Of a stretch of DNA of 32,000 nt, positions 17,647-32,000 are shown in pieces. Below the pieces are notes generated by a model. It was not told the origin of the DNA. It made no database searches and saw only the letters and a list, made by a program, of their open reading frames with translations. Each line of letters begins with the position of its first letter. Positions within the stretch are counted from its first letter, which is position 1. The stretch is from Acaryochloris marina S15 (GTDB lineage: Bacteria; Cyanobacteriota; Cyanobacteriia; Thermosynechococcales; Thermosynechococcaceae). The stretch lies in NCBI RefSeq assembly GCF_018336915.1, contig NZ_CP064923.1, positions 4,920,001 through 4,952,000 of the forward strand. The letters run 5' to 3'. A program made the translations under genes and the position numbers.

Positions 17647-19089
17647 ATGGCTTCTACCTGGACGGAACGTCAGCAACAGGTCGAACGGGAAGACCTGGTC
17701 ATGTTTATCAATGCCTGTCTGAGCTGTACGGGGCAGCGGGAATTTTATGACGAGGCCTGGGGACAGAAGCTTTCCCTCGACTTTTTGCATGACTATATTT
17801 TGGGCAACTATCGACTGCTCTATGCCCGCACCTTAGCCGCAGGGATTAATCACTTTAATCAGGGCCAAATCATTCTCAAATTACTGGCAACGGGAAAGCA
17901 AACACTCCCAGAACATCGCCAGGAAGAAGGCACTCTGATCGCTTCTACCCTAAATGCGTTGCCACCCCAGCGGGCCTGGAAAGTGCTGGAGCAAATTCGG
18001 AAACGACGGATTAATAACCGTCGAGCTAGGGCAATTGCCCGGGACTATATTGCGCAACGCCACCAGCGGCTGGATTTTGATGCAGTGAAATATCGCTCTA
18101 AGGTCAGTGGAATAGCCACTCACAATCACCTGAAACTACCGGGTGAAGTCGGGTCGTTTTTGTTTCGAGACTGGCCCCAGCAGTTTGAAACTGAGCTGTT
18201 TGAGAAATTTCGAAAAGCGTATTACAGCCAAGACGCGATCTATGCCCTGCCCTTTACGGTGGCAGAAGGGTTGGCGGCAAAACATCAGATCCCCCGTGAT
18301 CGCTTTTTAGCCCGCATCGAAGCCCAAATGACTCAGGCTGAAAAAGTGCGAATGCAGCAGAGTACGGAATGCGATCGCAACTCAAAACTCACGGTTGATC
18401 TCAAACACACCCCGATCACAAAGCTAGCTCTCTACTGCTTATCTTTGCCGATCAAGGATCGACAAGCACGACATACGGAATTGACTCAGGCTTTACAGCA
18501 ATCGGCCCAAGCAGCGCTGCATCGGGCTCCTTTACGGCTGGGAAAGGTGGCAGCAGTACTGGACTGTAGCTATTCCAGTAGCGGCTCGAATGAAAAGCGG
18601 AGACGGCCTTTGGGAGTCGCCTTAGCCATTCACTATCTGTTGCAAGCGGCATCCAATCAATATCAGGCCTTTTGGACATTACCTATCTCCGATCCGCTGT
18701 TGGTGCAGCCTCGGGGACAGACGGATCTGGCTACACCCTTGCTGGATGCCCTAGCAACCCATCCTGATGTAGTGGTGATTTTGTCCGATGGCTGGGAGAA
18801 TGATCCACCCAATGGTGCCGCAGAAGTGTTGCGGGTGTTTCGTCGTCGCCTTGATCCATCCGTTTCGATCCTGCACTGCAATCCGGTTTTCAATGCAGAT
18901 GACTTTTCTGTTCGAAACCTCAGTTCCGCAGTACCCACTGTCGGACTACGAGATGCTGAGGACTTACCAACAGTGCTGGGCTTTGCTCAATTTGCTGACG
19001 GCAAATCTTCTCTTGGGGATCTGGAACAGTATTTAAAGGTCCGGGTCCAACAGTTTCTCTCCAAATTCGATCCCAATCATGGCTCCTAA
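17647..19089 (+). CDS. vWA-domain protein with Ro60/TROVE-like architecture (helical N-terminal region + C-terminal MIDAS vWA)
   Basis: MIDAS DxSxS = D306-C-S-Y-S310 (18562-18576). vWA strand VVVILSDGWEND. The N-terminal segment LVMFINACLSCTGQREFYDE resembles the L..FL.LG..GGTFY segment I recall in bacterial Rsr. At 480 aa the length is similar to Rsr. The family call is an inference. Confidence 0.6.
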   Translation: MASTWTERQQQVEREDLVMFINACLSCTGQREFYDEAWGQKLSLDFLHDYILGNYRLLYARTLAAGINHFNQGQIILKLLATGKQTLPEHRQEEGTLIASTLNALPPQRAWKVLEQIRKRRINNRRARAIARDYIAQRHQRLDFDAVKYRSKVSGIATHNHLKLPGEVGSFLFRDWPQQFETELFEKFRKAYYSQDAIYALPFTVAEGLAAKHQIPRDRFLARIEAQMTQAEKVRMQQSTECDRNSKLTVDLKHTPITKLALYCLSLPIKDRQARHTELTQALQQSAQAALHRAPLRLGKVAAVLDCSYSSSGSNEKRRRPLGVALAIHYLLQAASNQYQAFWTLPISDPLLVQPRGQTDLATPLLDALATHPDVVVILSDGWENDPPNGAAEVLRVFRRRLDPSVSILHCNPVFNADDFSVRNLSSAVPTVGLRDAEDLPTVLGFAQFADGKSSLGDLEQYLKVRVQQFLSKFDPNHGS

Positions 19090-20254
19090 AGCGCCTCTAC
19101 TGAATACCCTTTCCCTCAAGGGGATAGAGATTGCTCCCTCCCAAGTCTGGGGAGGGATTCGGATTGTGCCGTTACTGCGCCGAAATGTTCGGGGAGATCT
19201 GCGTCTAGCCAAACGCGACTATGACGACGATCTGACAGTGGTCTCTCTCCAAGGTCAACCCTTAGCAGCTGGCCTCAAGTACACTTCCTACGTCCCCCAC
19301 GGGTTAGTACTGTCCTGGGATGAAGAGGGCCAGCCCGTTGCAGCGAAAGGCAGCCAATTAGGGACGGACGGGCAACGGTTTAAGGCCGGTCCCGTCAGTG
19401 TCAGGGTGCTATCGCGAATGGCGAAGCGGGAAGCTCGCAATCAACTCCGATTTCTCCCTCTGCATCTGGCGATGGAAGGCTTCTTGTCTCTGTTTTTCTC
19501 CGGGCCAGATATTGCTTGGAGTGAGTATTCTAAGCAAGCCCTGTCTCAAGGGTTATCGTCTCGAACCGAATGGTCGGTGTCAGGGCAGGCGATTCAAGGA
19601 CTAGCGGATGCTCTACGGGTGTTTGAAATCCACGAGCATCAGGTGGGGATGCTGCTGTTTGTATCGGAAGCGCTAGCCTCTGCCTTTATCACGCCCACAC
19701 CGGAAGATTACCGGCTGCTACACCCCAGTCTGCTGCAAGATTTCTATGGAGAACTGCTGTATCAGTACGGACTCTATGGGGGCACGGTGCCCATGCAGTC
19801 CCAGGTGGATGAGTCTAAGGTGGAGACTTTGGCGGATTTGCGGGATGCGATCGCAACCCTCAGACAAGACTGGGCCGCTTTCCAAGGGCTGATGGCCAGC
19901 GACCTCCTCCAACGGCCTGTAGAATCCAAACGCATCTATACGGCAGGTCCATTCACCTTGCAGCGGTTTATCACAGATCTCAAACTCAAATCCGAGAATC
20001 ACATTGGTGAAGCGATTGTCCGCAATGATGGACAACTAGAATACCTAAAAACCTATCGTTTATCTGCAGGTCAGGCTCGAAGGGCCTATTTACTCAGCCA
20101 GCTCGCTGCCCAGGGCTGGCACTTAGAACGAACCGCCTTATCCATGGGGGAGTTGCTAGAAAACTTTATCTATCGACTAGAAAAAGCTGGCTTTGGCTAT
20201 TTAATCAATAATCAAGTGCGTGAGCAGGCACAAAAAGCGAGGCGACGGGATTAG
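19079..20254 (+). CDS. Hypothetical protein (391 aa), translationally coupled to the vWA/TROVE-like gene
   Basis: The ATG at 19079 lies 11 nt inside the upstream gene (stop at 19087-19089). No catalytic motif recognised. Mixed beta-rich N-terminal region and helical C-terminal region ending in a basic tail. Confidence 0.65.
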   Translation: MAPKAPLLNTLSLKGIEIAPSQVWGGIRIVPLLRRNVRGDLRLAKRDYDDDLTVVSLQGQPLAAGLKYTSYVPHGLVLSWDEEGQPVAAKGSQLGTDGQRFKAGPVSVRVLSRMAKREARNQLRFLPLHLAMEGFLSLFFSGPDIAWSEYSKQALSQGLSSRTEWSVSGQAIQGLADALRVFEIHEHQVGMLLFVSEALASAFITPTPEDYRLLHPSLLQDFYGELLYQYGLYGGTVPMQSQVDESKVETLADLRDAIATLRQDWAAFQGLMASDLLQRPVESKRIYTAGPFTLQRFITDLKLKSENHIGEAIVRNDGQLEYLKTYRLSAGQARRAYLLSQLAAQGWHLERTALSMGELLENFIYRLEKAGFGYLINNQVREQAQKARRRD

Positions 20255-20271
20255 GGTAATGTCGATGATGG

Positions 20272-21552
20272 TTAAGATCCAATGGCCATTTCATTGAAGC
20301 GAAGTTGAGATCGCACATTCACCCGATGATTGGCCTGAATATAGTCAGCCACATACCGAACATCCCGAGCAATCCCTGAAAAGCGGCCTGACCCCCAAGT
20401 GTAGAGCCAAGGCAAGCCCACAAAATACAGTCCTTTCACTCCCGTCACGCCCCGATCATGACCGGGATAGCCCTTGCCATCAAACACAGGAATTTCCACC
20501 CAGGAATAGTCCATGTCATAGCCAATGGACCAAATCACGGTGCTGATATTAGCAGTTTGCAAGTTCAATGCCGTGGGTTCTGAAGCCGGCTCCCAAGCGG
20601 GGCTGTAAGGCTCATCCACTGGCGCAGCAATTTGATGTTTTTCAATATAAGCATCAATGGTGCCCTTGATGCTTTCAGCCACTGCATCGGCCTGATCCAA
20701 GTTCTCTTTCAAATTAGGCTGAAACGTTAACTGAGACCCACGAATATCTGCCAGCCTGCCGTAAAGCCGCATCCCTTCCAGGGCAAAATGACGCAAATCA
20801 ATTTCCCGCCCACCTCCGCGTCCCGTGACATAGTGGTTGGTTTTAGTTCTCACATTCTCTTTTTGGGGATGATCTTCAATGGTCAGATCGTAGTAACCCA
20901 ATTGATCGAGCCAATCCACCACATCTTTACCTCGGTATTGTCGGGGCGATCGCGGCGCACTACCGACACATAAATGCACCTGTTTTCCTGCTAGATGAAG
21001 GTCTTCGGCAATCTGACAGCCCGACTGCCCGGTGCCCACTACAATCACAGCTCCATCGGCTAAACTCTCCGGATTTTTATACTCAGAAGAATGGAGTTGG
21101 CGAACCTCTTCGGGAAGACACTGGGCTATACCAGGAATGCTAGGTCGATGATAGCCTCCAGTGGCCACCACAATTTGATCAGCCGTGAATTCCCCAATCG
21201 AGGTAGAGACTTCAAACACATCGCTAATGGGATTTTTGCGCACTCGCTGCACACTGACGCCTTCTCTAACGGGAGGATTAAAGGAACGAGCGTAGGCTTC
21301 GATATAGTCGACAATTTGGTCTTTTTGCATAAATCCGTTGGAGTCATCTCCAGAATAGGAAAATCCCGGTAGCTGACATTGCCAGTTGGGGGTAACTAAA
21401 CAAAAAGAATCCCAACGCTTGCTCCGCCAGGAATGGGCAATCTGATACTGCTCAAAGATAATGTGATCAATCTGACATTCACCTAAACAGTAACTAATGG
21501 ATAAGCCTGCTTGTCCACCGCCCACAATAATGACGGAATAATGGCTGCCCAT
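20272..21552 (-). CDS. Flavin-dependent oxidoreductase (FMO/CzcO-like), likely the MSMEG_0569-family partner of the Nit1C cluster
   Basis: ORF trimmed to the ATG at 21552 (MGSHYSVIIVGGGQAGLS). Second dinucleotide motif VIVVGTGQSGCQIAED. The longer ORF start at 21630 would run into the candidate NtcA box. Confidence 0.8.
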   Translation of the reverse strand: MGSHYSVIIVGGGQAGLSISYCLGECQIDHIIFEQYQIAHSWRSKRWDSFCLVTPNWQCQLPGFSYSGDDSNGFMQKDQIVDYIEAYARSFNPPVREGVSVQRVRKNPISDVFEVSTSIGEFTADQIVVATGGYHRPSIPGIAQCLPEEVRQLHSSEYKNPESLADGAVIVVGTGQSGCQIAEDLHLAGKQVHLCVGSAPRSPRQYRGKDVVDWLDQLGYYDLTIEDHPQKENVRTKTNHYVTGRGGGREIDLRHFALEGMRLYGRLADIRGSQLTFQPNLKENLDQADAVAESIKGTIDAYIEKHQIAAPVDEPYSPAWEPASEPTALNLQTANISTVIWSIGYDMDYSWVEIPVFDGKGYPGHDRGVTGVKGLYFVGLPWLYTWGSGRFSGIARDVRYVADYIQANHRVNVRSQLRFNEMAIGS

Positions 21553-21589
21553 ACTAGATTCCCTTTTGAACTGAGTACGTCGAAGACTA

Positions 21590-21637
21590 TTGGCACCATA
21601 AAGGGGGAATGAGGCGACAACGAGTAGCAAGAGATAC
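21590..21637 (-). promoter_or_regulatory. Candidate NtcA-activated promoter for the flavoprotein gene
   Basis: GTAGCAAGAGATAC (GTA-N8-TAC, 21624-21637). On the minus strand, 23 nt further on, lies TATGGT (TAN3T-type -10 box), about 40 nt upstream of the ATG at 21552. Confidence 0.4.
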
Positions 21638-22612
21638 AGATTGCTGAGGTTTATGACTTTCCCCAGGCTTCACGACATCTCTTGTCCAGTGACTCTGTGA
21701 AGAATACTCGTTTTGAACGGATGAACCTAGCAGTTTAGATAGTTTTCTGAAATATTAGAGTAATTCTTGAACTGGGACTGACCTGCTAGTCAGAGATCCG
21801 TGCAAGTAATCTTAAATGAGTATGGAAGGACAAGTATTCTGTCGTTATTTCAATAAACTCTCGCAAGACAATAGATCATAGGTCTCGCAGAATATCAAGA
21901 GGTGGCTAAATCGAATTGATGCTCCCAAGCAAGGTTGCCACAAACGAGTTCAAGAAAGTTGTGAAGAATGAAATACCATCAACCAAAGAATGAAAACGGG
22001 AGAAGGTATGGCATTTTTTCTAGGTAATATAAATCGCATCTTTAATGAGAAAAATACAGAAATAGCTTACTGACATCCATCAAGACATGCAATTAATGAT
22101 TCATATTAAATTCTTACGAAAAAGTGATTCCAGGAATGCATCACCATTTTTTTATCAAGGAAATAGGCTGAAAAAATTATAACGAATACTTGAATAGTAT
22201 CTTTCGACAACCACTACCTAAGACAGTCCAATTGAGACTCATATTCTATCAGAAACTGAATAATAGTATCGGAGCTATCTGGTATTTGAGAGATAACTAT
22301 AATATAGAAATAAAAATCATCTTAAGCCTATGAATCACTTTCGGCAACTGGAATGAAATAATATGATACTTCTCCAAGACAATGAAGAGAAATCAATCCT
22401 ATTAAGTATGCTTGACAACTTATTATGAGTGACATCCAATAAGTCGTAAAAAAAGGAATTAAGATATTTTAATGCTGGATTGAATATTCAATTTTGTAGA
22501 GAAATCGTTGTATACTCCATGATCATTCACTCAGCAAACCTTTGGGTTATCTACGTTTCTTTAAGACAGGCCACAATAGATTCAAGGCTACGCAATTGGT
22601 GTTCTTCACTAT

Positions 22613-22626
22613 ATGTGTTAACACAT
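22613..22626. promoter_or_regulatory. Perfect 14-bp palindrome, possible operator upstream of the GGDEF-EAL gene
   Basis: ATGTGTTAACACAT is perfectly self-complementary and sits ~90 nt upstream of the ATG at 22715. The cognate factor is unknown. Confidence 0.3.
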
Positions 22627-22714
22627 TCGATGTAATACATCCCCACAAATATGCAAGTAGTACATTTAATTTTATTCTTGCAAATTCATCGAATTCTTGT
22701 GGGCCTCTGAATGT

Positions 22715-25519
22715 ATGATTAAAGCCTATAAAGTAAAGCCACTTAGCGCTTCACCCAATCCCCCCAATCAGTCAGATCGACAGATAAACTGGCTCCAAGC
22801 TTTTGTAGGAACTGCCTTAGTTATTGTTACTGTAGCCGCATATTACAGCTATAGCGTAATACGACATTTGGCACTGGAGAGTCTGAGGCAAAATGCCTTT
22901 GAAGAAGCGCAGCATGGTGCAGGAGAAATTGATACCTGGTTAGCTAGATTGAAGTCTCAAACCGAGACCATTGCCAATACTCCCACGGTTCTCTCTTTAG
23001 ACTGGTCGACTATAGAACCCTACTTTATGGATGAACTGAAGCGAAACCAAGAATCATTCAAGCTCTCTTTGATTGGGAAAGACCGCTATTTAATTGCTAA
23101 CACTTCTGTGGGACTCCAGCGGCAAGACTTACGTCACCGAAACTACCTACGAGAAGTCTTAAAAGGCAAAACGTTTGTCAGTGATGCGGTTGTCTCCCCC
23201 ACCACAGGTGTTACTCAAATATTGATATCAACACCAATTTGGTCCACAGTCTCACCCACTCCATCATCATTGGATGAGTCAGATGCCATTCAGCAGCAAC
23301 CCAGCATTTTAGGCGCTGTTAATAACGCTGTCACGGTTGAACTGGTGTCAGAGGTGGTCTCAAGATTAAAGTATGGCCCTGATAGTTATGCATTTGTCCT
23401 GAATTCTGATGGCCGGGCTATGGTTCATCCCGATACTCAGTGGATGTCAACGCAAGAAGAGCCCGCAGCTAGCTTGCTAGACGATACCAATACAGATTTA
23501 GCTGACATCGCCAAGCGAATGGTTGATCGGCAAGAAGGCATTGAACTGCGTAACATAGATGGGCGACTTCAATATATTGCTTATCTCCCTTCTAAAGAAG
23601 CAAATTGGGCGATCGCTTTTGTCATCCCCAAAAACAATATTGAACATCAACTGCAACCCCTAGATCTGATTGCGTTTGCCTTTGGAATGCTGGCTATCAG
23701 CTTAGGAGTTGTGCTCTGGCGCTTGCAGGCGACTCAACATCACCAGCTTCGTCAAATCCAAGCGTTGACCAAGGCGACTAACCAAGCACTGGAACAAAGA
23801 GTACAGGAGCGTACGATTGAACTCGCACAGGCTAAAGAGCGTGCGCAAGTGACTCTTGAATCGATTGGTGATGCAGTGATTACCACTGATGCCGAGGGAC
23901 GTGTCGATTATCTCAACCCAGTTGCCGAGAGATTGACGGGTTGGTCACTAGAATCTGCACAAGGAGCGCCGCTCCCTGAGGTATTTCGACTCATTAATGA
24001 ATACAGTCGTGAGCCAGTAACTGATCCCGTGGCTCGTTGCCTAGCGGAGGGATGCATAGTCGATCTAGCAAATCATACGGTGTTGATCAACCGGCATGGC
24101 CAAGAGTTCGCCATTGAAGATTCGGCTGCTCCGATCCGGGACACCAACAATCACTTATTAGGGGTCGTTCTGGTGTTTCACGATGTGAGTGAACAGCGCC
24201 GATTACAAGAGGAAATCTCTCATCAGGCTCAACATGATGCGCTGACAGGTTTGTTTAATCGCTATGAGTTTGAACGCCGCCTGCAGCAGGCCATTGAGAT
24301 GGCCCAAGCACAAGATAGTGAACATGCACTTTGCTACCTGGACCTTGATCAGTTCAAGTTGGTCAATGATACCTGTGGACATGCTGCAGGTGACGCCTTG
24401 TTAAAACAGCTGTCCGTTTTGTTCGAGAGTAAAATCCGGCAGTGCGATACATTGGCACGATTAGGTGGCGATGAATTCGGGGTGTTGTTAGAGCATTGCT
24501 CCCTCACTAATGCCAAGTCCATTGCTAACACCTTGCGTCAAGCCGTCGAAGATTTTAGCTTTAGTTGGCAGGAGCAGCGTTTTCGCGTCGGGGTCAGCCT
24601 TGGTTTGGTTACGGTTGATGCCATGAGTACCAACGTTGCCAATATTTTACAGGCGGCCGATAGTGCCTGTTATGTCGCTAAAGACTCCGGTCGCAATCGT
24701 GTCCATGTGTACCTTGAACACGACGAGATGTTAGCTCAACGATATGGCGAGATGAAGTGGGTCTCCCGTATTCAGCAAGCATTAGAGGAAGATCTGTTTG
24801 AGTTGTATGCTCAGCCGATTGTTCCCCTCAATGAACGTTTTGCCGGCAGATTACACTGCGAATTGTTATTACGCTTGATTGAAGAAGATGGTAAAACCTC
24901 TCTCCCAGGAGCGTTTATGCCAGCTGCCGAGCGATATAACCTAGCCGTTGCCATCGATCGTTGGGTGGTAAGTCACGCTTTTCAGTGGTTGGTTGCCCAC
25001 GCTGATGTATTTGATCGATTGGCATTAGTTACGCTCAATTTGTCTGGGCATTCCATTGGCGATCGATTTTTTCATGCATACGTATTGAAGCAACTGGATG
25101 ATACGGGTATATCCGCTAAGAAAATCTGCTTTGAGATTACTGAAACTGCTGCTATAGCCAATCTGACTGATGCCACCCGATTTATGCAGACCCTCAGAAC
25201 ACGAGGTTGTCGTTTCTCATTGGATGATTTCGGTAGTGGGTTATCGTCTTTTGGATATCTAAAAACTTTACCGGTTGATTTTTTAAAAATTGATGGCTTA
25301 TTTGTGAAGGATATTGTTGACGATCCAGTTGACTTGGCAATGGTGCGCTCGATTAACGAGATTGCTCAGTTGCTCAATAAGGAGACTGTTGCTGAGTGCG
25401 TTGAGAATGATGAGATACTCAATCAATTACGCACTCTGGGAGTGGATTATGGACAAGGATATGGTTGTGGTCGCCCCCAACAACTGTCCACTTTTATGCA
25501 TGAGGGCTCCACACTTTAA
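22715..25519 (+). CDS. Membrane sensor diguanylate cyclase/phosphodiesterase (Cache-TM-PAS-GGDEF-EAL)
   Basis: ORF trimmed to the first in-frame ATG. Two TM segments flank a Cache-like periplasmic region. PAS segment LESIGDAVITTDAEGRVDYLNPVAERLTGW. I-site RQCD lies 5 aa before the intact GGDEF. EAL-domain motifs ELLLR, FEITE, DDFGSG, LKIDG, ECVEN and GQGYG. Confidence 0.9.
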   Translation: MIKAYKVKPLSASPNPPNQSDRQINWLQAFVGTALVIVTVAAYYSYSVIRHLALESLRQNAFEEAQHGAGEIDTWLARLKSQTETIANTPTVLSLDWSTIEPYFMDELKRNQESFKLSLIGKDRYLIANTSVGLQRQDLRHRNYLREVLKGKTFVSDAVVSPTTGVTQILISTPIWSTVSPTPSSLDESDAIQQQPSILGAVNNAVTVELVSEVVSRLKYGPDSYAFVLNSDGRAMVHPDTQWMSTQEEPAASLLDDTNTDLADIAKRMVDRQEGIELRNIDGRLQYIAYLPSKEANWAIAFVIPKNNIEHQLQPLDLIAFAFGMLAISLGVVLWRLQATQHHQLRQIQALTKATNQALEQRVQERTIELAQAKERAQVTLESIGDAVITTDAEGRVDYLNPVAERLTGWSLESAQGAPLPEVFRLINEYSREPVTDPVARCLAEGCIVDLANHTVLINRHGQEFAIEDSAAPIRDTNNHLLGVVLVFHDVSEQRRLQEEISHQAQHDALTGLFNRYEFERRLQQAIEMAQAQDSEHALCYLDLDQFKLVNDTCGHAAGDALLKQLSVLFESKIRQCDTLARLGGDEFGVLLEHCSLTNAKSIANTLRQAVEDFSFSWQEQRFRVGVSLGLVTVDAMSTNVANILQAADSACYVAKDSGRNRVHVYLEHDEMLAQRYGEMKWVSRIQQALEEDLFELYAQPIVPLNERFAGRLHCELLLRLIEEDGKTSLPGAFMPAAERYNLAVAIDRWVVSHAFQWLVAHADVFDRLALVTLNLSGHSIGDRFFHAYVLKQLDDTGISAKKICFEITETAAIANLTDATRFMQTLRTRGCRFSLDDFGSGLSSFGYLKTLPVDFLKIDGLFVKDIVDDPVDLAMVRSINEIAQLLNKETVAECVENDEILNQLRTLGVDYGQGYGCGRPQQLSTFMHEGSTL

Positions 25520-25749
25520 CAATCTCAAATTTTGTTTCTAAATGAATGGTGATTTCATCAAAATAGTTTTTAACCGCATAAAAACGTGAAACTTACTTGT
25601 AGCTTTTTGCCACAGCCCACTAGAAAAGCTGCCAGACGTTTTTGAGGTAGTCTACCTGTTACTTTCGATAGGTAGCATCCAATTACGCTGTCTTTTATTT
25701 CGCAAAAAGCTAGTGTACCCCTGTCACTTCAAGTAGACATTAAGAGTTT

Positions 25750-25791
25750 GTAGTAGTTGATACAGGGGAAGGATTTCAACCCACTTACTGT
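25750..25791 (+). promoter_or_regulatory. Candidate NtcA-activated promoter of the Nit1C operon
   Basis: GTAGTAGTTGATAC (GTA-N8-TAC, 25750-25763), then exactly 22 nt, then TACTGT (TAN3T, 25786-25791). It lies 68 nt upstream of the ATG at 25859. Confidence 0.5.
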
Positions 25792-25858
25792 GCAGAGTTA
25801 ATGATGCTCACCCATGCATCAGGCACTTCCAAAACTCTTCAAGAAGGATGCTTAACCA

Positions 25859-26341
25859 ATGCCAGAAGTTACTACTCCAATCCACCAGACTGGCGACTTT
25901 TTTGTGGATTATGAGGAAAAAGTATTCCCCGATGTGCAGGCCGATCCAGGTGAAAAAGCCTTAGTCACTTTTCATACCGTGGCCTTTGAAGGGTCCATTG
26001 GCTTGGTCAATTTATTGCAGGCCACCCGTCTGATTCGCAAAGGATTTGAAACCTCCATTCTGCTCTATGGTCCCGGTGTGACATTGGGAGTGCAGCGAGG
26101 GTTTCCCAAACTTGGGGATGAGGCTTTCCCAGGTCATATGGCCATGAATAATCAGCTGGTCAAAATCATGGAAGAAGGCGGCAAAGTCTATGCCTGTCGG
26201 TTTGCCCTACAAGCCCTATACGGCCACGGTGAACCCTCGTTGATTCCCGGCATTCAGCCTATCAATCCGTTGGATGTCCTAGATATCGTCTTGATGCACC
26301 GGAAAGATGGTGCCTTCATTCTGGATACCTGGACGATGTAG
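25859..26341 (+). CDS. Sll0783/MSMEG_0572-family nitrogen-starvation response protein (first gene of the Nit1C cluster)
   Basis: 160 aa, positioned directly upstream of the nitrilase as in the Synechocystis sll0783 operon. GAAGGA lies upstream of the ATG. The assignment rests on context and size, not on a catalytic motif. Confidence 0.7.
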
Positions 26342-26391
26342 CTCTTTGATGTGCCGTCACTTTAGTCCGCTCATACTCTGAGGGAATCACT

Positions 26392-27402
26392 ATGGATCAC
26401 GTCAAAACAGTACGAGCTGCCGCTGTCCAGATTAGTCCGGTCTTGTTCAGTCGGGAGGGGACAACGGAGAAAGTTTTGGATGCGATCGCATCTGCAGCCC
26501 AAGAAGGCGTCCAACTGATCGTCTTTCCTGAAACCTTAGTCCCCTATTATCCCTATTTCTCCTTCGTTCAACCGCCCGTGGTCATGGGCAAAGCCCATAT
26601 GCAGCTTTACGAAGAAGCGGTAACCGTGCCGGGGGCAGTGGTTGATGCCATCAGCCGAGCCGCACGATCCTACGAGATGGTCGTGGTTCTGGGGGTGAAT
26701 GAACGAGACGGCGGCTCCCTCTATAACACCCAACTGATCTTTGACACTGATGGCACCTTGGGGCTAAAGCGACGCAAGATCACCCCTACTTACCATGAGC
26801 GGATGGTTTGGGGGCAGGGAGATGGGGCCGGATTGACCGTCCTAGAGACGGCAGTGGGTCGACTGGGAGCCTTGGCCTGCTGGGAGCATTACAATCCCCT
26901 GGCTCGCTATGCCCTGATGGCTCAGCAGGAAGAAATTCACTGTGGGCAGTTTCCGGGGTCGATGGTGGGACAAATCTTTGCGGACCAAATGGAAGTAACG
27001 ATGCGCCACCATGCCTTGGAGTCGGGCTGTTTTGTGGTCAATGCCACGGGCTGGTTAACCCCAGAGCAAAAGCAGCAAATCACCCCCAATGAAAACCTAC
27101 AAAAAGTCCTAAGCGGCGGCTGTTATACCGCCATTATTAGTCCCGAGGGCGTGCCCCTCTGCGACCCCGTAACCGAGGGAGAAGGAATGGCAATTGCCGA
27201 CCTCGATTTTTCTCTAATTACCAAGCGCAAACGGATGATGGATTCCGTGGGCCATTATTCCCGGCCCGATCTACTCCAGCTGCAGGTAAATCAAAAGGCT
27301 TGGGCAGTGATGCAGCCACCCCCAACAACACTCCCGGAGCAGGACAAGGAGCCTTCTTTACCCCTCTTATCCGATGAGCCCATTCCTCGACCCGTCGATT
27401 AA
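26392..27402 (+). CDS. Nitrilase (Nit1C / Nit6803-type)
   Basis: Catalytic triad contexts [11 protein letters not shown] and ACWEH (Cys163, 26878-26880). GAGGGA Shine-Dalgarno sequence. Confidence 0.92.
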
Positions 27403-27411
27403 AGCAAAATT

Positions 27412-28494
27412 ATGGACAAACAACATCTAATTACGGAACTGCAATCGAACGGACTGCAGGTGATTGACCCCAGTATTGGCGTTGCGGGGCGTCGAGGTGG
27501 AGCTGGCCCCTCGGATCATAAAGCAGTGACCGTGGATGGGACGACGGTGATGGTTCCGATTTATACGGGAACCGCCAGCCAATCTCCCTATACGACCCAG
27601 GTCAACCAGGGCCGTCAGGCGGTGCTAGAGAAATCTAGTCAGGCCGTGGCTACGGTGGAGTTTCCTCTGCAGCCCCAGTTTTACGACCTGCAAACGTCAG
27701 ACGGCATCCCCTATTGGAAGATTGCCCTGCTCCATAGTCATGACGTGTTGGCCACCACGGTATTGCAAACCTGTATGCGGTATCGCAATACCGATACGGC
27801 CTGTCAGTTCTGTGCCATTGAAAAGTCCCTAGACGCCGATCGCACCATTGCCCGCAAAACGCCAGAACAGCTAGCAGAAGTGGCAGAGGCAGCGGTGCGC
27901 CTAGATGGGGTCCAGCATATGATCATGACCACTGGGACACCGAATACCCACGATCGCGGGGCGGCCTACCTAGCCGAATGTGCCCAAGCCATCAAAGCGC
28001 GGGTTAACCTGCCCATCCAGGCCCAGTGCGAACCTCCAGACGATTTTGGCTGGTTCGCCCAGATGAAGGCAGCAGGGGTAGACAGTTTGGGAATGCACCT
28101 AGAAGTGGTTGATCCACAGGTGCGATCTAAAATCATGCCCGGTAAAGCAGAAGTGCCCCTATCCCATTATTTTGAAGCCTTTGAGGCAGCGGTTCAGGTA
28201 TTTGGTTGGGGCCAAGTGTCTACCTATTTATTAGCAGGACTGGGGGATAGCCTAGAAACCCTGGTGGAAACCTGCCAACGGCTGATTGACTTAGGGGTTT
28301 ATCCGTTTGTCGTCCCCTTTGTCCCCATTTCCGATACACCCTTAGCCCACCATCCGGCCCCCAGTAGCGAGTTTATGTTTGCCCTCTATCAGCAGGTGGG
28401 GACGATGTTAAAGCAAGCGGGAATGTCGTCCACAGACATGAATGCAGGATGTGCCAAGTGTGGCGCTTGTTCCGCCTTATCTACGTTTGAGTAA
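27412..28494 (+). CDS. Radical SAM-like protein (MSMEG_0568/Sll0785-type)
   Basis: Cys cluster C121-x9-C131-x2-C134 (27772-27813). Second cluster C347-x2-C350-x2-C353 at the C-terminus. Occupies the cluster position after the nitrilase. Confidence 0.75.
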   Translation: MDKQHLITELQSNGLQVIDPSIGVAGRRGGAGPSDHKAVTVDGTTVMVPIYTGTASQSPYTTQVNQGRQAVLEKSSQAVATVEFPLQPQFYDLQTSDGIPYWKIALLHSHDVLATTVLQTCMRYRNTDTACQFCAIEKSLDADRTIARKTPEQLAEVAEAAVRLDGVQHMIMTTGTPNTHDRGAAYLAECAQAIKARVNLPIQAQCEPPDDFGWFAQMKAAGVDSLGMHLEVVDPQVRSKIMPGKAEVPLSHYFEAFEAAVQVFGWGQVSTYLLAGLGDSLETLVETCQRLIDLGVYPFVVPFVPISDTPLAHHPAPSSEFMFALYQQVGTMLKQAGMSSTDMNAGCAKCGACSALSTFE

Positions 28495-28607
28495 GTGCTA
28501 TGCATTCTCAGGGCATTGATAGAAGAGAGACTGGAAACCATACAACACTCTCTCTCCTTCAAGTACACAAAACTCGTACTTGTGATTGCCCATCCTCATC
28601 TGTACTG

Positions 28608-29291
28608 ATGCTAAGTATTTCAACCCGCAATCTTGACTCTCTTCCCGATGTGAATAGCCTCAAGCAGTTATTACAATCTCTCGCCATGCTGGACGCAATC
28701 TTATCGCCTGAATGGGAATACCGTTACTACTCATTCAATGCAAAATGGTCACGGGATGGACAAATGGGTTCCATGCGAGATGGCTCTGGGGATGAGTTTT
28801 TTGCGTTCTTCAATAACGCTGGATGCTTCTTGAAAGGGTTTGTCCATGACTGTTCTATGACCCCCTATCGAACTCAACCCCCTAAAATCTGGCCAGGGAT
28901 GCTGGAGGGTGTTCCTGAAGCATTCTCGTCAGCCTTGTCTGAGCCTGCATTCTCAATGGATGACATAACATTTGGTCTTTGGCGACACTACTCCGATCAA
29001 GCTTGGTCTCATGGTTCCATTGAATTCCCTGAAGGTGATGATCCAGACGGATCTGAGTCCCTGCTAGCCCTCCTTGATCGCAATCCTGCCACTTACCGAC
29101 AGTTTGCTGAAGAGTATTACGAAATTGAGATCCCCTTGAACTCTATCCAACATATTTATAAGCATTTGCCGCTGACGACCGATCTGGTTTCATCTCTGAA
29201 CAATGACCTCTCGCTAACGGATTTGGCAGAAGACATTAGCGAGATTGACTATCCCTACACCCAGATCACTAAATCAACGACTCAACAATAA
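28608..29291 (+). CDS. Hypothetical protein inserted within the Nit1C operon
   Basis: Uninterrupted ORF 28500..29291. The start is either the ATG at 28500 or the ATG at 28608. No motif recognised. It is not one of the Nit1C families I know. Confidence 0.55.
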   Translation: MLSISTRNLDSLPDVNSLKQLLQSLAMLDAILSPEWEYRYYSFNAKWSRDGQMGSMRDGSGDEFFAFFNNAGCFLKGFVHDCSMTPYRTQPPKIWPGMLEGVPEAFSSALSEPAFSMDDITFGLWRHYSDQAWSHGSIEFPEGDDPDGSESLLALLDRNPATYRQFAEEYYEIEIPLNSIQHIYKHLPLTTDLVSSLNNDLSLTDLAEDISEIDYPYTQITKSTTQQ

Positions 29292-29322
29292 ATGATTAGC
29301 AATGTTAAAGGAGCAGAATCTG

Positions 29323-29838
29323 ATGGCATCCAGTCGATATAGTTTCAAGTTGGCGCAATCTCCCCAAGATCTACGAGGGTATTGTGAGCTACGCCAAGCG
29401 ATTTTTTGTCAGGAACAAGGACTCTTTGAAGGCAAGGATAAAGACGACATCGATACCACCGCCTATCCGATTGTGGCCATTGACCCAGAGGCCCCACCAG
29501 ATCAGCAAGTGGTAGGAGTGGTTCGCATTTATGAAGAACAGGATCGACTTTGGTACGGCGGTCGCTTAGGGGTTCATGCTGACTATCGCCGAGCTGGGCG
29601 CATCGGTAAGGGACTGATTTATAAAGCCGTCACCACTGCCAATACTTGGGGATGCGATCGCTTCCTCGCTACGGTCCAACTCCAAAACGTCCGATTCTTT
29701 CAACGCCAACACTGGGACTCTTTAGAAGAGATACAGATCTGCGATCGCCCCCATCATCTAATGGAAGCCGACCTAGATTTTTATCCTCCTAATGATGAAT
29801 CCCGTCCACAAGTTACACCCCTTCTCCAAGCCTCTTAA
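29323..29838 (+). CDS. GNAT-type N-acetyltransferase (MSMEG_0567/Sll0786-type)
   Basis: ORF trimmed to the ATG at 29323, which is preceded by AAGGAG (29308-29313, 9-nt spacer). GNAT-like core VVGVVRIY...GRLGVHADYRRAGRIGKGLI. Confidence 0.8.
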   Translation: MASSRYSFKLAQSPQDLRGYCELRQAIFCQEQGLFEGKDKDDIDTTAYPIVAIDPEAPPDQQVVGVVRIYEEQDRLWYGGRLGVHADYRRAGRIGKGLIYKAVTTANTWGCDRFLATVQLQNVRFFQRQHWDSLEEIQICDRPHHLMEADLDFYPPNDESRPQVTPLLQAS

Positions 29839-30812
29839 TGCTGTCGGAGTTAGCAGCAGAGTTACAACAAACCTTGGGACTTCTGCATAAACAGGATATT
29901 CAACCCGTTGCCCGTCACCTAGGCACTTGGGTTCCTGACAATACCACTCAAACCCCCATCTGGTTGGGGGATGACTGTGCTGCTATCCCCGATGAAGAAG
30001 GTTATTTATTACTGGCGGCGGAGGGGATGTGGTCAGTCTTAGTCGAAACAGAACCCTGGTTCGCAGGCTGGTGCGGCGTTCTAGTCAACGTTAGCGATAT
30101 CTATGCCATGGGCGGTAAACCGATTGCAGTAGTGGATGCCCTCTGGAGTCGGTCCACCGATCAAGCTGAACAGCTGTGGGAAGGAATGAAGGCGGCGTCC
30201 AAGGCATTTAATGTACCGATTGTAGGAGGCCATACCCATTGTCATAGTCCTTATGAAGCCCTTTCAGTAGCGATTTTGGGACGGGCACAGCAGTTGATAA
30301 CTAGCTTTAATGCCCAACCTGGCGATATCGTATTGCTGGTCACCGATCTCAACGGTCAACCCCATCCTAAATATCCGTTTTGGGATGCAGCAACAATGGC
30401 AGAGCCAAAGACACTACAAACCAATCTCAATTTACTCCCCACCCTGGCGGAATCGGGATTATGTGATGCCGGGAAAGACATTAGCATGGGGGGCTTAATA
30501 GGTACCTTGTTGATGCTATTAGAAACTTCTGGTTGTGGAGCTGTACTTGACTTAGAATCGATTCCCTATCCTTCGGGTTTAGACTTCAAACAATGGTTGG
30601 TGAGTTTCCCTAGTTACGGTTTTTTGCTCAGTGTCAGGCCAGATTGCGTTGAGCCGATTCAGCAATTATTTGAGCCGCATAATATAGTCTGTGCTGCCAT
30701 TGGGCAAATCACGCCAGAGCATACATTAACCCTGAAATCTAAAGCTGAGTCCGCTTGCTTCTGGGATTTGAGCCAAGATGCCCTAACTGGATTCTCAAAA
30801 TTCAGTTCCTAG
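29838..30812 (+). CDS. AIR-synthase-related (PurM/ThiL/HypE-fold) protein, Sll0787-type
   Basis: LGDDCAAI and VNVSDIYAMGGKP motifs. The start overlaps the GNAT stop (TAATG), which indicates translational coupling. Confidence 0.85.
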   Translation: MLSELAAELQQTLGLLHKQDIQPVARHLGTWVPDNTTQTPIWLGDDCAAIPDEEGYLLLAAEGMWSVLVETEPWFAGWCGVLVNVSDIYAMGGKPIAVVDALWSRSTDQAEQLWEGMKAASKAFNVPIVGGHTHCHSPYEALSVAILGRAQQLITSFNAQPGDIVLLVTDLNGQPHPKYPFWDAATMAEPKTLQTNLNLLPTLAESGLCDAGKDISMGGLIGTLLMLLETSGCGAVLDLESIPYPSGLDFKQWLVSFPSYGFLLSVRPDCVEPIQQLFEPHNIVCAAIGQITPEHTLTLKSKAESACFWDLSQDALTGFSKFSS

Positions 30813-30874: not shown

Positions 30875-31924
30875 CTACGGCAGGCTATACCATGCACCCC
30901 GCCCACTCCCATGCAATACCAGTAAGTTTTGCTTAAGTAAACTCTTGAAGTGCGACTTGAGTGTGTTTCGACTCGCTCCAGTTAAAACCACAGCATCGCT
31001 CATGGTAATACGACCGTGGTTTCGGGCCTGGTCCAGAATTTGCACTGACAGATTTGGCAACTTTGCCAATAGCAGTTTTTCTCGTCCGACTTTTTCACGA
31101 AGCCCTAGCATCTGACGCTGGAGTGCTCTTAGGAAAAACAATAGCCATGGTGTCCAGTTAGGGGTATTGGTGCGAATAGTTCCCTGAGTTTGGCGCAATG
31201 CCAGATAATAGTCTTCTTTATTCTGTTCGACAATGCTCTCAAGTGAGCTATAAGGCACATAAGCATAGCCTGCTTGAAGTAACAATAATGTTGTCAGTAC
31301 TCGGCTCAGACGACCGTTACCATCCTGAAAAGGATGAATCTCCAAAAACACAACGGTAAAAAGGCCAATGGTTATCAGGGGGTGAAGCGCCTTATCTTGA
31401 GTCGTAGTATTAAACTCATCAATCAGTTCTGCCATGAAACGGGGAGTATCAAATGGAGTGGCCGTTTCAAATACAATGCCAATGGGTTGTCCATCTACAT
31501 CAAAAGCAGCAACGCTGTTAGAAGAGGTTTTGTAATTGCCTCGATGCCAGTTATCTTTGGCGCTATACCGTAGTAAATCACGATGAAGTTGTTTGAGATG
31601 GTTCTCTGTCATCGAAATCGCTGTCCATGACGAGAAAACAGTCTCCATCACCTCCGCATAACCTGCAACCTCCTGCTGATCCCGACTGGTAAATGACTGA
31701 ATCTCTAGATTGGACAGAAGTTGCTCAACTTCTCGATCAGAAAGTCTGCTGCCCTCGATCCGAGTTGAGGAGCCAATGCTCTCGATAGTAGCCACATGGC
31801 GAAGTGCTGAAAGTCTTTCTGGTGCAAGGGAACCGAGAGCACGCCAAGCGCCCTTGAATTCATCAATCTCGGCAATCAGCAAAAGCATTTCTTGACTGAT
31901 TTGTAGTGAGGTAGTATCGAACAT
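30875..31924 (-). CDS. Fic/Fido-domain protein (probable AMP-transferase) with an N-terminal autoinhibitory motif and a C-terminal wHTH-like region
   Basis: Fic motif HPFQDGNGRLSR (from 31336 downward). Inhibitory (S/T)xxxE(G/N) motif as S-TRI-E-G. The start is either the ATG at 31924 or the GTG at 31939. Confidence 0.9.
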   Translation of the reverse strand: MFDTTSLQISQEMLLLIAEIDEFKGAWRALGSLAPERLSALRHVATIESIGSSTRIEGSRLSDREVEQLLSNLEIQSFTSRDQQEVAGYAEVMETVFSSWTAISMTENHLKQLHRDLLRYSAKDNWHRGNYKTSSNSVAAFDVDGQPIGIVFETATPFDTPRFMAELIDEFNTTTQDKALHPLITIGLFTVVFLEIHPFQDGNGRLSRVLTTLLLLQAGYAYVPYSSLESIVEQNKEDYYLALRQTQGTIRTNTPNWTPWLLFFLRALQRQMLGLREKVGREKLLLAKLPNLSVQILDQARNHGRITMSDAVVLTGASRNTLKSHFKSLLKQNLLVLHGSGRGAWYSLP

Positions 31925-32000
31925 GCTCCATTTATACACCCATTTACACCCAATTAAATCAGCGTTAAAAGCAAGCTATCTAACATTGACTCAGCTAACC

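Follow-up and report, generated by a model that had tools for sequence, protein, structure and literature searches.

Nit1C is a known, widely conserved nitrogen-starvation cluster that also goes by the names nitHBCDEFG, sll0783-sll0787 (in Synechocystis) and MSMEG_0565-0572, or the 'gpr' genes (in M. smegmatis). The Synechocystis sll0783-sll0787 operon, with its Nit6803 nitrilase, was reportedly described by Schlebusch and Forchhammer in 2010. Nitrilase activity has been measured in vitro for both Nit6803 and Nit11764; the latter acts poorly or not at all on cyanide itself and on several cyanohydrins (PMC7815647). In Pseudomonas, nitC has been linked to cyanide assimilation (PMC11049912), and effects on NADPH/NADP have been reported in two phyla (PMC3901256; PMC6039565). 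The physiological role was described as unclear in 2021 (PMC7815647) and again in 2024 (PMC11049912). The first-pass annotation of the present locus had noted the cyanide link in pseudomonads, which is borne out in PMC11049912, and had called the substrate of the cluster undefined, with which the literature up to 2024 agrees (PMC7815647, PMC11049912).

The locus is the Acaryochloris copy of this already described cluster, which that annotation had identified correctly, and its sole oddity is the presence of three unrelated genes between the cluster's own. Taken as a whole, it is likely to consist of a nitBCDEF operon and a separate nitH, both under the control of NtcA and serving nitrogen scavenging, with one of the unrelated genes (gene X) carried as a passenger.

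Gene content and extent of the cluster

The following features lie in the window, by which we mean the whole 32,000-nt stretch of DNA that was analysed (scores are given against the curated cut-off of each family model):

25859..26341, + strand: nitB, Sll0783/MSMEG_0572-family protein, 160 aa (TIGR04044, 290.5 against 109.85)
26392..27402, + strand: nitC, Nit6803-family nitrilase, 336 aa (TIGR04048, 590.6 against 502.6)
27412..28494, + strand: nitD, MSMEG_0568-family radical SAM protein, 360 aa (TIGR04043, 624.7 against 303.7)
28608..29291, + strand: gene X, uncharacterised conserved family, 227 aa (longest ORF from ATG 28500)
29323..29838, + strand: nitE, Sll0786/MSMEG_0567-family GNAT (TIGR04045, 245.6 against 68.45)
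29838..30812, + strand: nitF, sll0787-family AIR-synthase-like (PurM-fold) protein, 324 aa (TIGR04049, 497.5 against 321.3)
20272..21552, - strand: nitH, MSMEG_0569-family flavin-dependent oxidoreductase (TIGR04046, 688.3 against 498.35)

Only part of what had been proposed from the sequence survives unaltered. The five nit frames on the + strand exist, as do their junctions: exactly 9 nt (27403-27411) separate the nitrilase from the gene that follows, and the GNAT and AIR-synthase-like genes overlap at TAATG (29836-29840). The five families also follow one another in the order given, but a sixth ORF, gene X, which follows the radical SAM gene and precedes the GNAT gene, had been missed. The flavin oxidoreductase counted among the enzymes is present in the window, but outside the interval 25750-30812 to which the cluster had been assigned. 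That interval holds nitB to nitF and its first base coincides with a GTAN8TAC box (see below); the cluster itself is wider. The family names drawn from MSMEG_0565-0572 match, except that MSMEG_0565 denotes the glycosyltransferase family (TIGR04047) and not the AIR-synthase-like one.

Assignment to Nit1C is supported by family scores, structure-linked similarity and synteny. All five operon proteins lie far above the cut-offs of the TIGRFAM models named in the first-pass annotation, and with nitH included six NCBIfam models are passed with wide margins. NitC aligns over residues 2-315 with the Nit6803 crystal-structure sequence 3WUY (E 2.2e-170). Gene order is identical across 80 cyanobacterial Nit1C loci, with which synteny is clear. 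All nit genes in the window are intact, full-length and above equivalog cut-offs, with dN/dS values of 0.02-0.10, while dS along the operon is mosaic, indicating recombination.

Features of the individual proteins are as follows. NitB carries an invariant Cys113 and has no Pfam or PDB match in sequence searches; its AF2 model is of low confidence (pLDDT 63.5, pTM 0.60), and the five best Foldseek matches of that model are of the DsrE/DsrF/YchN family (3mc3, E 1.8e-4; 3pnx; 1jx7; 2hy5; and 2pd2, a hypothetical protein). NitC has the Glu-Lys-Cys triad noticed earlier (E47, K129, C163), plus E136. The cysteines of NitD are arranged as C121-x9-C131-x2-C134 and C347-x2-C350-x2-C353. The ORF of nitE could begin at 29302, but ATG 29323 is the probable start; the resulting MASSRYSF is kept in all Acaryochloris loci. 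NitF carries AIRS and AIRS_C Pfam domains; among solved sequences, ThiL, PurL and SelD come closest to it. NitH has two GxGxxG motifs; its ORF reaches TTG 21630, but the TIGR04046 match begins at residue 31 of this long form and the probable start is ATG 21552 (MGSHYSVIIVGGGQAG).

The arrangement of the genes suggests that nitB-C-D-E-F form one operon and that nitH is transcribed separately. The core genes share one strand, the successive gaps (with X included) are 50, 9, 113 (or 5 with X taken from 28500), 31 and -1 nt, and no intergenic terminator-like site was found between 25859 and 30812. Most gaps between core genes are short, but the radical SAM-GNAT interval of 810 nt is the largest among 74 loci (median 74 nt).

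Set against the definition of Nit1C given by Podar et al. 2005 (PMC1199592), the families of ORF1 to ORF5 are all present in the window, NitB with its 160 aa falling within the 160-163 aa of ORF1 and NitC being of the subfamily-1 (Nit6803) type. The definition also places the core genes on one strand with hardly any nucleotides between them; strand and most gaps agree with this, the 810-nt radical SAM-GNAT interval with gene X does not. The flavin oxidoreductase family is represented as well, by nitH, which an inserted gene has left 4.2 kb from nitB. ORF6 (∼100 aa, MSMEG_0570 family) was not found within the 32,000 nt. In relatives L001-L003 and L009 the MSMEG_0570 gene sits after a gene for an MSMEG_0565-family glycosyltransferase, and the spacer that precedes the latter is recognizable close to the end of the window:

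31909..31985, + strand: conserved spacer preceding the MSMEG_0565-family glycosyltransferase gene in relatives (blastn, 91% to L003 9829-9905)

In L003 the glycosyltransferase gene (546.7 bits to the MSMEG_0565 family) starts at 9925; by this alignment its counterpart should start ∼20 nt past the window end, and both it and the MSMEG_0570 gene probably lie just beyond base 32000. Neither is universal: the glycosyltransferase occurs in 21 of the 44 loci that are well flanked, and roughly half of the well-flanked cyanobacterial loci lack it and the MSMEG_0570 gene.

Proposed nitrogen control and function

Cyanobacterial promoters of class II, activated by NtcA, carry a GTAN8TAC box ∼22 nt upstream of a -10 element of the form TAN3T. 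Two candidate boxes precede the nit genes:

25750..25763, + strand: putative NtcA-type box GTAGTAGTTGATAC, 109 nt upstream of the nitB ATG
21624..21637, - strand: putative NtcA-type box GTATCTCTTGCTAC, 85 nt upstream of the nitH ATG

Both fit the class II layout: the -10-like TACTGT (25786-25791) lies 22 nt downstream of the first box and TATGGT (21600-21595) 23 nt downstream of the second. The window contains seven copies of the motif where 2.8 would be expected, and because 5 of 100 shuffles reached seven, a single box is weak evidence; it is conservation across loci that carries the argument. Of 71 loci, 61 have GTAN8TAC in the 400 nt that precede the sll0783 homologue, as compared with 7.7% of random 400-nt windows; in 44 of 54 loci it is found in the 300 nt that precede the flavin gene. 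In Synechocystis, NtcA ChIP-seq shows a peak at the sll0783 promoter (PMC5714215), and in M. smegmatis induction of the cluster is GlnR-dependent and exceeds 500-fold (PMC6039565). We infer that the operon is co-transcribed and that NtcA binds here too: when nitrogen is limiting, NtcA would occupy the boxes at 25750 and 21624, and this would switch on both the nitB-C-D-X-E-F transcript and nitH.

The cluster would then serve nitrogen scavenging. NitC may free ammonium from a nitrile, possibly one derived from cyanide, and the remaining enzymes, drawing on SAM, ATP, acetyl-CoA and NAD(P)H/O2, would make or process its physiological substrate; the effect on NADPH/NADP balance in other organisms could be a knock-on consequence. 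Simple nitrile hydrolysis does not account for the NADPH phenotypes, and these are among the observations that speak for an alternative in which the cluster would be biosynthetic, with the radical SAM, PurM-fold, GNAT and flavin enzymes plus the glycosyltransferase assembling, under nitrogen starvation, a small protective or redox-active molecule, possibly glycosylated, and the nitrilase acting in tailoring. Sets of enzymes like this one typically assemble small molecules, the glycosyltransferase is part of the cluster in relatives, and the known nitrile substrates are inefficiently turned over in vitro (PMC7815647). Moreover, M. smegmatis has a raised NADPH/NADP and resists peroxide when its cluster is expressed (PMC6039565), and the Synechocystis sll0783 mutant is more oxidised (PMC3901256). 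However, no product of the cluster has ever been detected, around half of the well-flanked cyanobacterial loci do without genes for the glycosyltransferase and MSMEG_0570, genetic data from Pseudomonas connect nitC with cyanide utilization as a nitrogen source (PMC11049912; PMC7815647), and nitrogen control in three phyla fits scavenging. We regard a biosynthetic role as rather unlikely and retain nitrogen scavenging.

Unrelated genes in the spacers

Three unrelated genes occupy spacers of the cluster: a GGDEF-EAL gene between nitH and nitB, gene X between nitD and nitE, and a Fic gene after nitF. The insertions are strictly intergenic. Those other than X are:

21554..25717, + strand: lineage-specific segment parting nitH from nitB, composed of a 1066-bp AT-rich spacer (GC 0.34) and the GGDEF-EAL gene
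22697-25519, + strand: dCache-PAS-GGDEF-EAL gene (Pfam and NCBIfam matches)
30875..31939, - strand: Fic-domain gene in the spacer that follows nitF, ahead of the expected glycosyltransferase gene (Pfam Fic; PADLOC SoFic, 152 bits)

The first of these has increased the distance from nitH to nitB to 4229 nt, where the other loci have a median of 306 nt; only L001 and L002 share the segment by blastn, and A. marina MBIC11017, L003 and L009 do not. The Fic gene is absent from the corresponding position in L003 (a 190-nt spacer), and in L001 and L002 a YhcG_C gene stands in its place.

Gene X, whose ORF spans 28500-29291 at its longest, probably starts at ATG 28608, since the N-termini of the family align from MLSISTRN. 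It has replaced the ∼55-nt spacer of MBIC11017 in a clean intergenic swap. The family is large (2073 homologues, none with a Pfam domain) and well conserved, with 55-68% identity across phyla and 34 invariant positions including K-G-F-x-H and P-D-G-S. Searches with X itself gave no match in Pfam, NCBIfam, PADLOC or PDB sequence and profile searches, and its AF2 model (pLDDT 87.4) found no neighbour with Foldseek (best E 0.02 with TM 0.17 in PDB; best E 0.26 in BFVD).

The distribution of X bears on its role. Three related contigs carry it in the same slot, with proteins 84-97% identical to that of the window, but it is found in none of 80 other species-representative cyanobacterial Nit1C loci, which include three other Acaryochloris loci, MBIC11017 among the 80. 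None of the relatives looked up outside Acaryochloris adjoins nit genes; homologues elsewhere have unrelated and variable neighbourhoods. In a Chamaesiphon MAG the slot held here by X contains a DJ-1/PfpI-family gene. Gene X is under purifying selection (dN/dS 0.22-0.28), at values higher than those of both flanking genes, and its dS is below that of both, suggesting recent spread.

It is conceivable that X was recruited into the pathway in an Acaryochloris sub-lineage, as an additional enzyme, as a carrier, or as a factor with a protective or immunity-like role towards an intermediate. Such a view draws on its position within the operon, where gaps are short and no terminator was seen, its retention in one slot in three related contigs, a dN/dS below 0.3, family conservation more like that of an enzyme or ligand binder than of a fast-evolving immunity protein, and the Shine-Dalgarno-like AAAGGAG ahead of nitE, which arrived with the insertion. 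But a gene missing from all 80 other loci, with the relatives looked up outside Acaryochloris lying away from nit genes and with signs of recent spread, is probably not a step in the pathway, and the two further, plainly unrelated insertions indicate that the spacers are simply permissive; we consider recruitment improbable. Judged by its sequence and context, X is most likely a passenger riding on the operon promoter.

The notion that the cluster is breaking up and is no longer a functional unit in this lineage, the insertions having uncoupled genes from promoters, could appeal to the three insertions, to the 4.2 kb that now separate nitH from nitB and to the recombination seen in dS, but is highly improbable given full-length genes above equivalog cut-offs, the low dN/dS of the nit genes, insertion sites that are strictly intergenic and NtcA-type boxes retained or re-created before both units.

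Comparison with known systems

The locus of A. marina MBIC11017 (L008, NC_009925.1 2228216-2249295), from the same genus, encodes proteins 89-98% identical to those of the window. Its flavin gene is likewise divergent and a box of the same type, GTAGTTATTGATAC, also lies 109 nt upstream. It differs in its ∼55-nt radical SAM-GNAT spacer without X, in a nitH-nitB spacer of 772 nt with no GGDEF-EAL gene, and in having no glycosyltransferase or MSMEG_0570 gene within 10 kb downstream.

The sll0783-sll0787 operon of Synechocystis sp. PCC 6803 (PMC3901256, PMC5714215) comprises these five families too, arranged in the same order. NitB shares 87% identity with Sll0783 and an NtcA-type box lies upstream in both; unlike that operon, the window has gene X, the GGDEF-EAL gene and the Fic gene.

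The nitBCDEFGH clusters of P. oleovorans/pseudoalcaligenes CECT 5344 as well as P. fluorescens NCIMB 11764 contain the same seven protein families, and Pseudomonas NitC likewise belongs to the Nit6803 nitrilase family, its catalytic residues being the same at an offset of 3 (PMC7815647). Unlike in the window, nitG and nitH directly follow nitF (PMC11049912, PMC7815647). In Pseudomonas the sigma-54 activator NitA controls the cluster, which is linked to growth on cyanide, whereas the window has putative NtcA-type elements, and none of its scanned ORFs was identified as a nitA-like regulator.

Finally, the gpr cluster of M. smegmatis (MSMEG_0565-0572) has the same families, is induced by nitrogen starvation and begins with a DsrE-like protein; it is controlled by GlnR, and its phenotype is peroxide resistance with an altered NADPH/NADP ratio (PMC6039565). 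In MSMEG_0567 the GNAT and AIR-synthase-like domains are fused (TIGR04045, TIGR04050), whereas in the window they are encoded by separate genes that overlap by one base.

Identity and architecture of the cluster

Six consecutive, intact reading frames occupy the + strand between 25859 and 30812. Five are the genes from which the first-pass annotation had proposed a Nit1C cluster, and they stand in the order it gave: nitB (Sll0783-like), nitC (nitrilase), nitD (radical SAM), nitE (GNAT) and nitF (AIR-synthase-like, with a PurM-type fold). The sixth, here called X, had been missed: the radical SAM gene ends at 28494, and the GNAT gene follows only after 810 nt that contain X. The finer details had been read correctly: the 9-nt gap following the nitrilase (27403–27411) and the TAATG overlap of the GNAT and AIR-synthase-like genes (29836–29840) are exact, and the E-K-C triad of the nitrilase is Glu47-Lys129-Cys163, with Glu136 also present (residue positions read from the sequence). 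The flavin oxidoreductase that had been counted among the enzymes is encoded in the window, but outside 25750–30812; its gene, nitH, represents the seventh Nit1C family.

All five core proteins score well beyond the cut-offs of the named curated NCBIfam (TIGRFAM-derived) models; none therefore falls short of its trusted cut-off, which had been named in advance as grounds for abandoning the assignment. Compared with the sequence of crystallised Nit6803 (3WUY), the nitrilase gives a match at E 2e-170, and the flavin oxidoreductase contains two GxGxxG dinucleotide-binding motifs.

Table. Scores of the cluster proteins against curated NCBIfam models, and the cut-offs of those models.
Sll0783/MSMEG_0572 protein (NitB): TIGR04044, 290.5, cut-off 109.85
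Nit6803 nitrilase (NitC): TIGR04048, 590.6, cut-off 502.6
MSMEG_0568 radical SAM protein (NitD): TIGR04043, 624.7, cut-off 303.7
GNAT (NitE): TIGR04045, 245.6, cut-off 68.45
sll0787 AIR-synthase-like protein (NitF): TIGR04049, 497.5, cut-off 321.3
MSMEG_0569 flavin-dependent oxidoreductase (NitH; 20272–21552, −): 688.3, cut-off 498.35

Scanning the radical SAM protein against species-representative genomes yielded 80 cyanobacterial Nit1C loci, the nearest being those of Acaryochloris marina MBIC11017 and two Acaryochloris MAGs (93–94% identity). Locus architectures were established by tblastn of all cluster proteins against the 80 loci, and gene presence was counted in the 44 with at least 6 kb on either side. 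The expected synteny with cyanobacterial Nit1C was confirmed: each core gene is found in 42–44 of these 44 loci. The flavin gene occurs in 33, of which 18 have it co-directional and 15 divergent; 21 loci encode the MSMEG_0565 glycosyltransferase and 16 encode the MSMEG_0570 protein. The Nit1C identification is correct and the cluster already described, having been defined as seven genes by Podar et al., 2005 (PMC1199592); the window copy is another member, carrying lineage-specific insertions. We regard it as very probable that the locus is Nit1C with the architecture set out here.

Further genes in the window are as follows.
106–2760 (−): 884-aa fusion of a GMC-oxidoreductase C-terminal domain and a 3-keto-disaccharide hydrolase domain
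4351–5739 (−): IctB-family putative bicarbonate transporter (TIGR00947, 563.8 bits)
6937–10200 (+): ROCO-type protein, 1087 aa, with LRR, Roc GTPase, COR-A and COR-B domains
12403–15966 (−): RTX protein, 1187 aa, with calcium-binding nonapeptide repeat (31 matched stretches, 636 bits)
17647–20254 (+): two overlapping genes adjoining the 3′ side of nitH and convergent with it, for a 480-aa protein that matches no family and then a 391-aa ARPP-2 (PF22549, 385 bits)

NtcA-type boxes and transcription units

Both transcription units are preceded by an NtcA-type box.
25750–25763: GTAN8TAC box GTAGTAGTTGATAC, 109 nt ahead of the nitB start; TACTGT lies 22 nt downstream of the box
21637–21624: flavin-gene box, 85 nt before the ATG at 21552, with TATGGT 23 nt downstream

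One GTAN8TAC box by itself is weak evidence, because the window holds seven against 2.8 expected. Taken over many loci, the evidence is strong: of 71 usable loci, 61 have a box in the 400 nt preceding the sll0783 homologue, often at a similar distance, compared with 7.7% of random 400-nt windows (a 72nd locus, L076, was left out as a truncation artefact), and in 44 of 54 loci a box lies within 300 nt upstream of the flavin gene. ChIP-seq in Synechocystis places an NtcA peak at the sll0783 promoter (PMC5714215), and a terminator scan found no terminator-like site between the operon genes. From the conserved boxes, the Synechocystis peak and the terminator-free intergenic regions we infer co-transcription and nitrogen control of the window operon, a reading that is well supported. 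Promoter and terminator scans of the window as a whole both stayed within shuffled-sequence expectation, and an Rfam scan, which included the AT-rich spacer and the leaders, returned no structured RNA.

Insertions between the genes, and gene X

The window carries three insertions, each between genes: a GGDEF-EAL segment, X and a Fic gene.
21631–22696: AT-rich spacer from nitH to the GGDEF-EAL gene, 1066 bp, GC 0.34 against 0.49 for the window
28521–28558: inverted repeat in the X leader, downstream of the radical SAM gene
28608–29291 (+): X, 227 aa
30875–31939 (−): Fic-domain gene (PADLOC SoFic model, 152 bits)

Spacing between nitH and nitB is 4229 nt, against a median of 306 nt among loci, and comprises the AT-rich spacer, which has no ORF above 60 aa and no Rfam match, and a dCache-PAS-GGDEF-EAL gene. 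This segment is common to the window and two of the related contigs (L001/L002) only. The Fic gene, whose SoFic model stands for a candidate anti-phage defence protein, sits between nitF and the expected position of the glycosyltransferase gene; the corresponding spacer is 190 nt in a third related contig, L003, and in the close relatives L001/L002 a YhcG_C-domain gene takes the place of Fic. Neither nitG nor the glycosyltransferase gene was found in the window before base 32000. Since positions 31909–31985 are 91% identical to L003 sequence directly upstream of the glycosyltransferase gene, that gene should start some 20 nt outside the window, and the MSMEG_0570 gene is expected further on, by analogy with L001–L003 and a further comparison locus, L009.

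By tblastn, X is absent from all 80 Nit1C loci, MBIC11017 included; only the window and three Logan contigs carry it (L001/L002, 97% identity; L003, 84%). The 810-nt radical SAM–GNAT gap is the largest among 74 loci (median 74 nt), and DNA alignment reveals a spacer of about 55 nt in MBIC11017 replaced by X and its leader, with the flanking genes intact. No target-site duplications or terminal inverted repeats were found at the borders of X, where there are only chance-level short repeats and a leader hairpin. The leader contains a 13-nt inverted repeat (AGAAGAGAGACTG / CACTCTCTCTCCT; 85% complementary, 12-nt loop); it is not a terminator, since no T-run follows, and may have a structural role or one in RNA processing. 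A Chamaesiphon MAG (L064) has an unrelated DJ-1/PfpI gene (11114–11770, 218 aa, Pfam 45.8 bits), inserted independently, at the radical SAM–GNAT junction: the slot is thus tolerant of insertions.

DNA and protein alignments make ATG 28608 the likely start of X; a 263-aa version from 28500 was rejected, its first 36 residues not being conserved in the family and its frame being broken by a 7-nt indel in L003. Likewise, a GNAT start at 29302 was set aside because the DNA alignment shows ATG 29323 to be conserved.

Synonymous divergence from L001 and L003 is a mosaic along 25859–30812: against L001, dS is low for X (0.04), sll0783 (0.12) and the radical SAM gene (0.16), and higher for GNAT (0.44), the nitrilase (0.49) and the AIR-synthase-like gene (0.69). 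Such a pattern suggests recombination within the cluster among Acaryochloris strains. The dS of X is lower than that of both neighbours in each comparison (0.04 against 0.12–0.69 for L001; 0.40 against 0.68–0.99 for L003), and its dN/dS within Acaryochloris is 0.22–0.28, compared with 0.02–0.10 for the nit genes. These values fit a functional gene whose arrival or spread postdates the divergence of the genes flanking it.

We interpret X as a passenger whose expression comes from the Nit1C operon. That it has been co-opted as an eighth, lineage-specific part of the NtcA-driven operon in an Acaryochloris sub-clade seems to us improbable; were it so, the operon would provide the first functional context for the X family, and X-bearing and X-free Acaryochloris would form a natural pair for probing the Nit1C product or substrate.

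Passenger or not, X belongs to an orphan family deserving its own description. At E ≤ 1e-3 there are 2073 homologues, typically of 215–228 aa and without a Pfam domain among them; the family numbers over 2000 clusters, its proteins being about 220 aa long, and has members in Acidobacteriota and many metagenomes. It is strongly conserved, with 54–84% identity to X and 34 invariant positions in the alignment. The AlphaFold2 model is confident (pLDDT 87.4, pTM 0.87). Sequence and profile searches of X against Pfam, NCBIfam, PADLOC and PDB gave no significant match, and Foldseek found no neighbour of the model in PDB (best E 0.02, TM 0.17) or among the viral models of BFVD. Eight homologues from outside Acaryochloris (L004, L005, L006, L087, L088, L090–L092) lie in unrelated and variable neighbourhoods: an Imm33/Tdi1 array (one homologue), pentapeptide-repeat arrays, ATP-grasp genes with a lysine-aminomutase-like radical SAM gene, adjoining XisH/XisI genes, or small uncharacterised genes; otherwise the homologue stands alone. 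The Imm33-like/Tdi1 neighbours of that one homologue raised the reading of X as a polymorphic-toxin immunity protein, which we did not take up because the other neighbourhoods are unrelated and the family is too conserved, immunity proteins usually being far less so.

Protein features, proposed role and known systems

Nit1C is among the best-conserved ‘function unknown’ operons of bacteria: a nitrogen-starvation response in cyanobacteria, mycobacteria and pseudomonads with links to cyanide use, PHB accumulation and NADPH balance. Two of these links, to cyanide and to PHB, appear in the first-pass annotation. In Pseudomonas, nitC is tied to cyanide assimilation via a 2-hydroxynitrile (PMC11049912), and in Synechocystis, mutation of sll0783 lowers the NADPH/NADP ratio and reduces PHB (PMC3901256). 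The purified nitrilase prefers fumaronitrile and cinnamonitrile, uses cyanide poorly and is inactive on acetone cyanohydrin and mandelonitrile, its physiological role being termed unclear (PMC7815647). GlnR induces the M. smegmatis cluster over 500-fold, and the cluster increases both NADPH/NADP and resistance to peroxide (PMC6039565); nitHBCDEFG occurs in marine picocyanobacteria of low-nitrogen waters (bioRxiv 10.1101/2022.08.17.504260). We found no newer literature on the pathway chemistry.

Under nitrogen limitation, NtcA would activate nitB-C-D-X-E-F and nitH; the SAM-, ATP-, acetyl-CoA- and NAD(P)H-dependent enzymes, together with DsrE-like NitB, would make or process the physiological substrate, and NitC would release ammonium from a nitrile. 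Whether nitrogen scavenging via a nitrile is the physiological role we consider evenly balanced. For this chemistry the window is no more tractable than the loci of model organisms; what it adds is multi-locus evidence, in the form of conserved NtcA-type boxes at both transcription units, a picture of gene-insertion tolerance in the Nit1C spacers, and an orphan family wired into the operon of one Acaryochloris lineage.

NitF has a PurM fold; its closest solved sequences are ThiL, PurL and SelD, and methanogenesis marker 2 is a strong secondary match. The canonical radical SAM motif, C-x3-C-x2-C, is replaced in NitD by C-x9-C-x2-C, and there is a C-terminal C-x2-C-x2-C. NitB is exceptionally conserved, being 87% identical to Sll0783 and 88% to an alphaproteobacterial homologue, and its Cys113 is invariant; a profile search against PDB sequences gave only spurious antibody light-chain matches. 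The NitB model has low confidence (pLDDT 63.5), yet the best five Foldseek matches, all to DsrE/DsrF/YchN-family proteins, agree with published DsrE-type assignments (PMC1199592, PMC6039565). Finally, NitE and NitF are fused in mycobacteria (TIGR04050), whereas in the window they are encoded by separate genes that overlap by one base: the overlap and the fusion together suggest that the two proteins act jointly.
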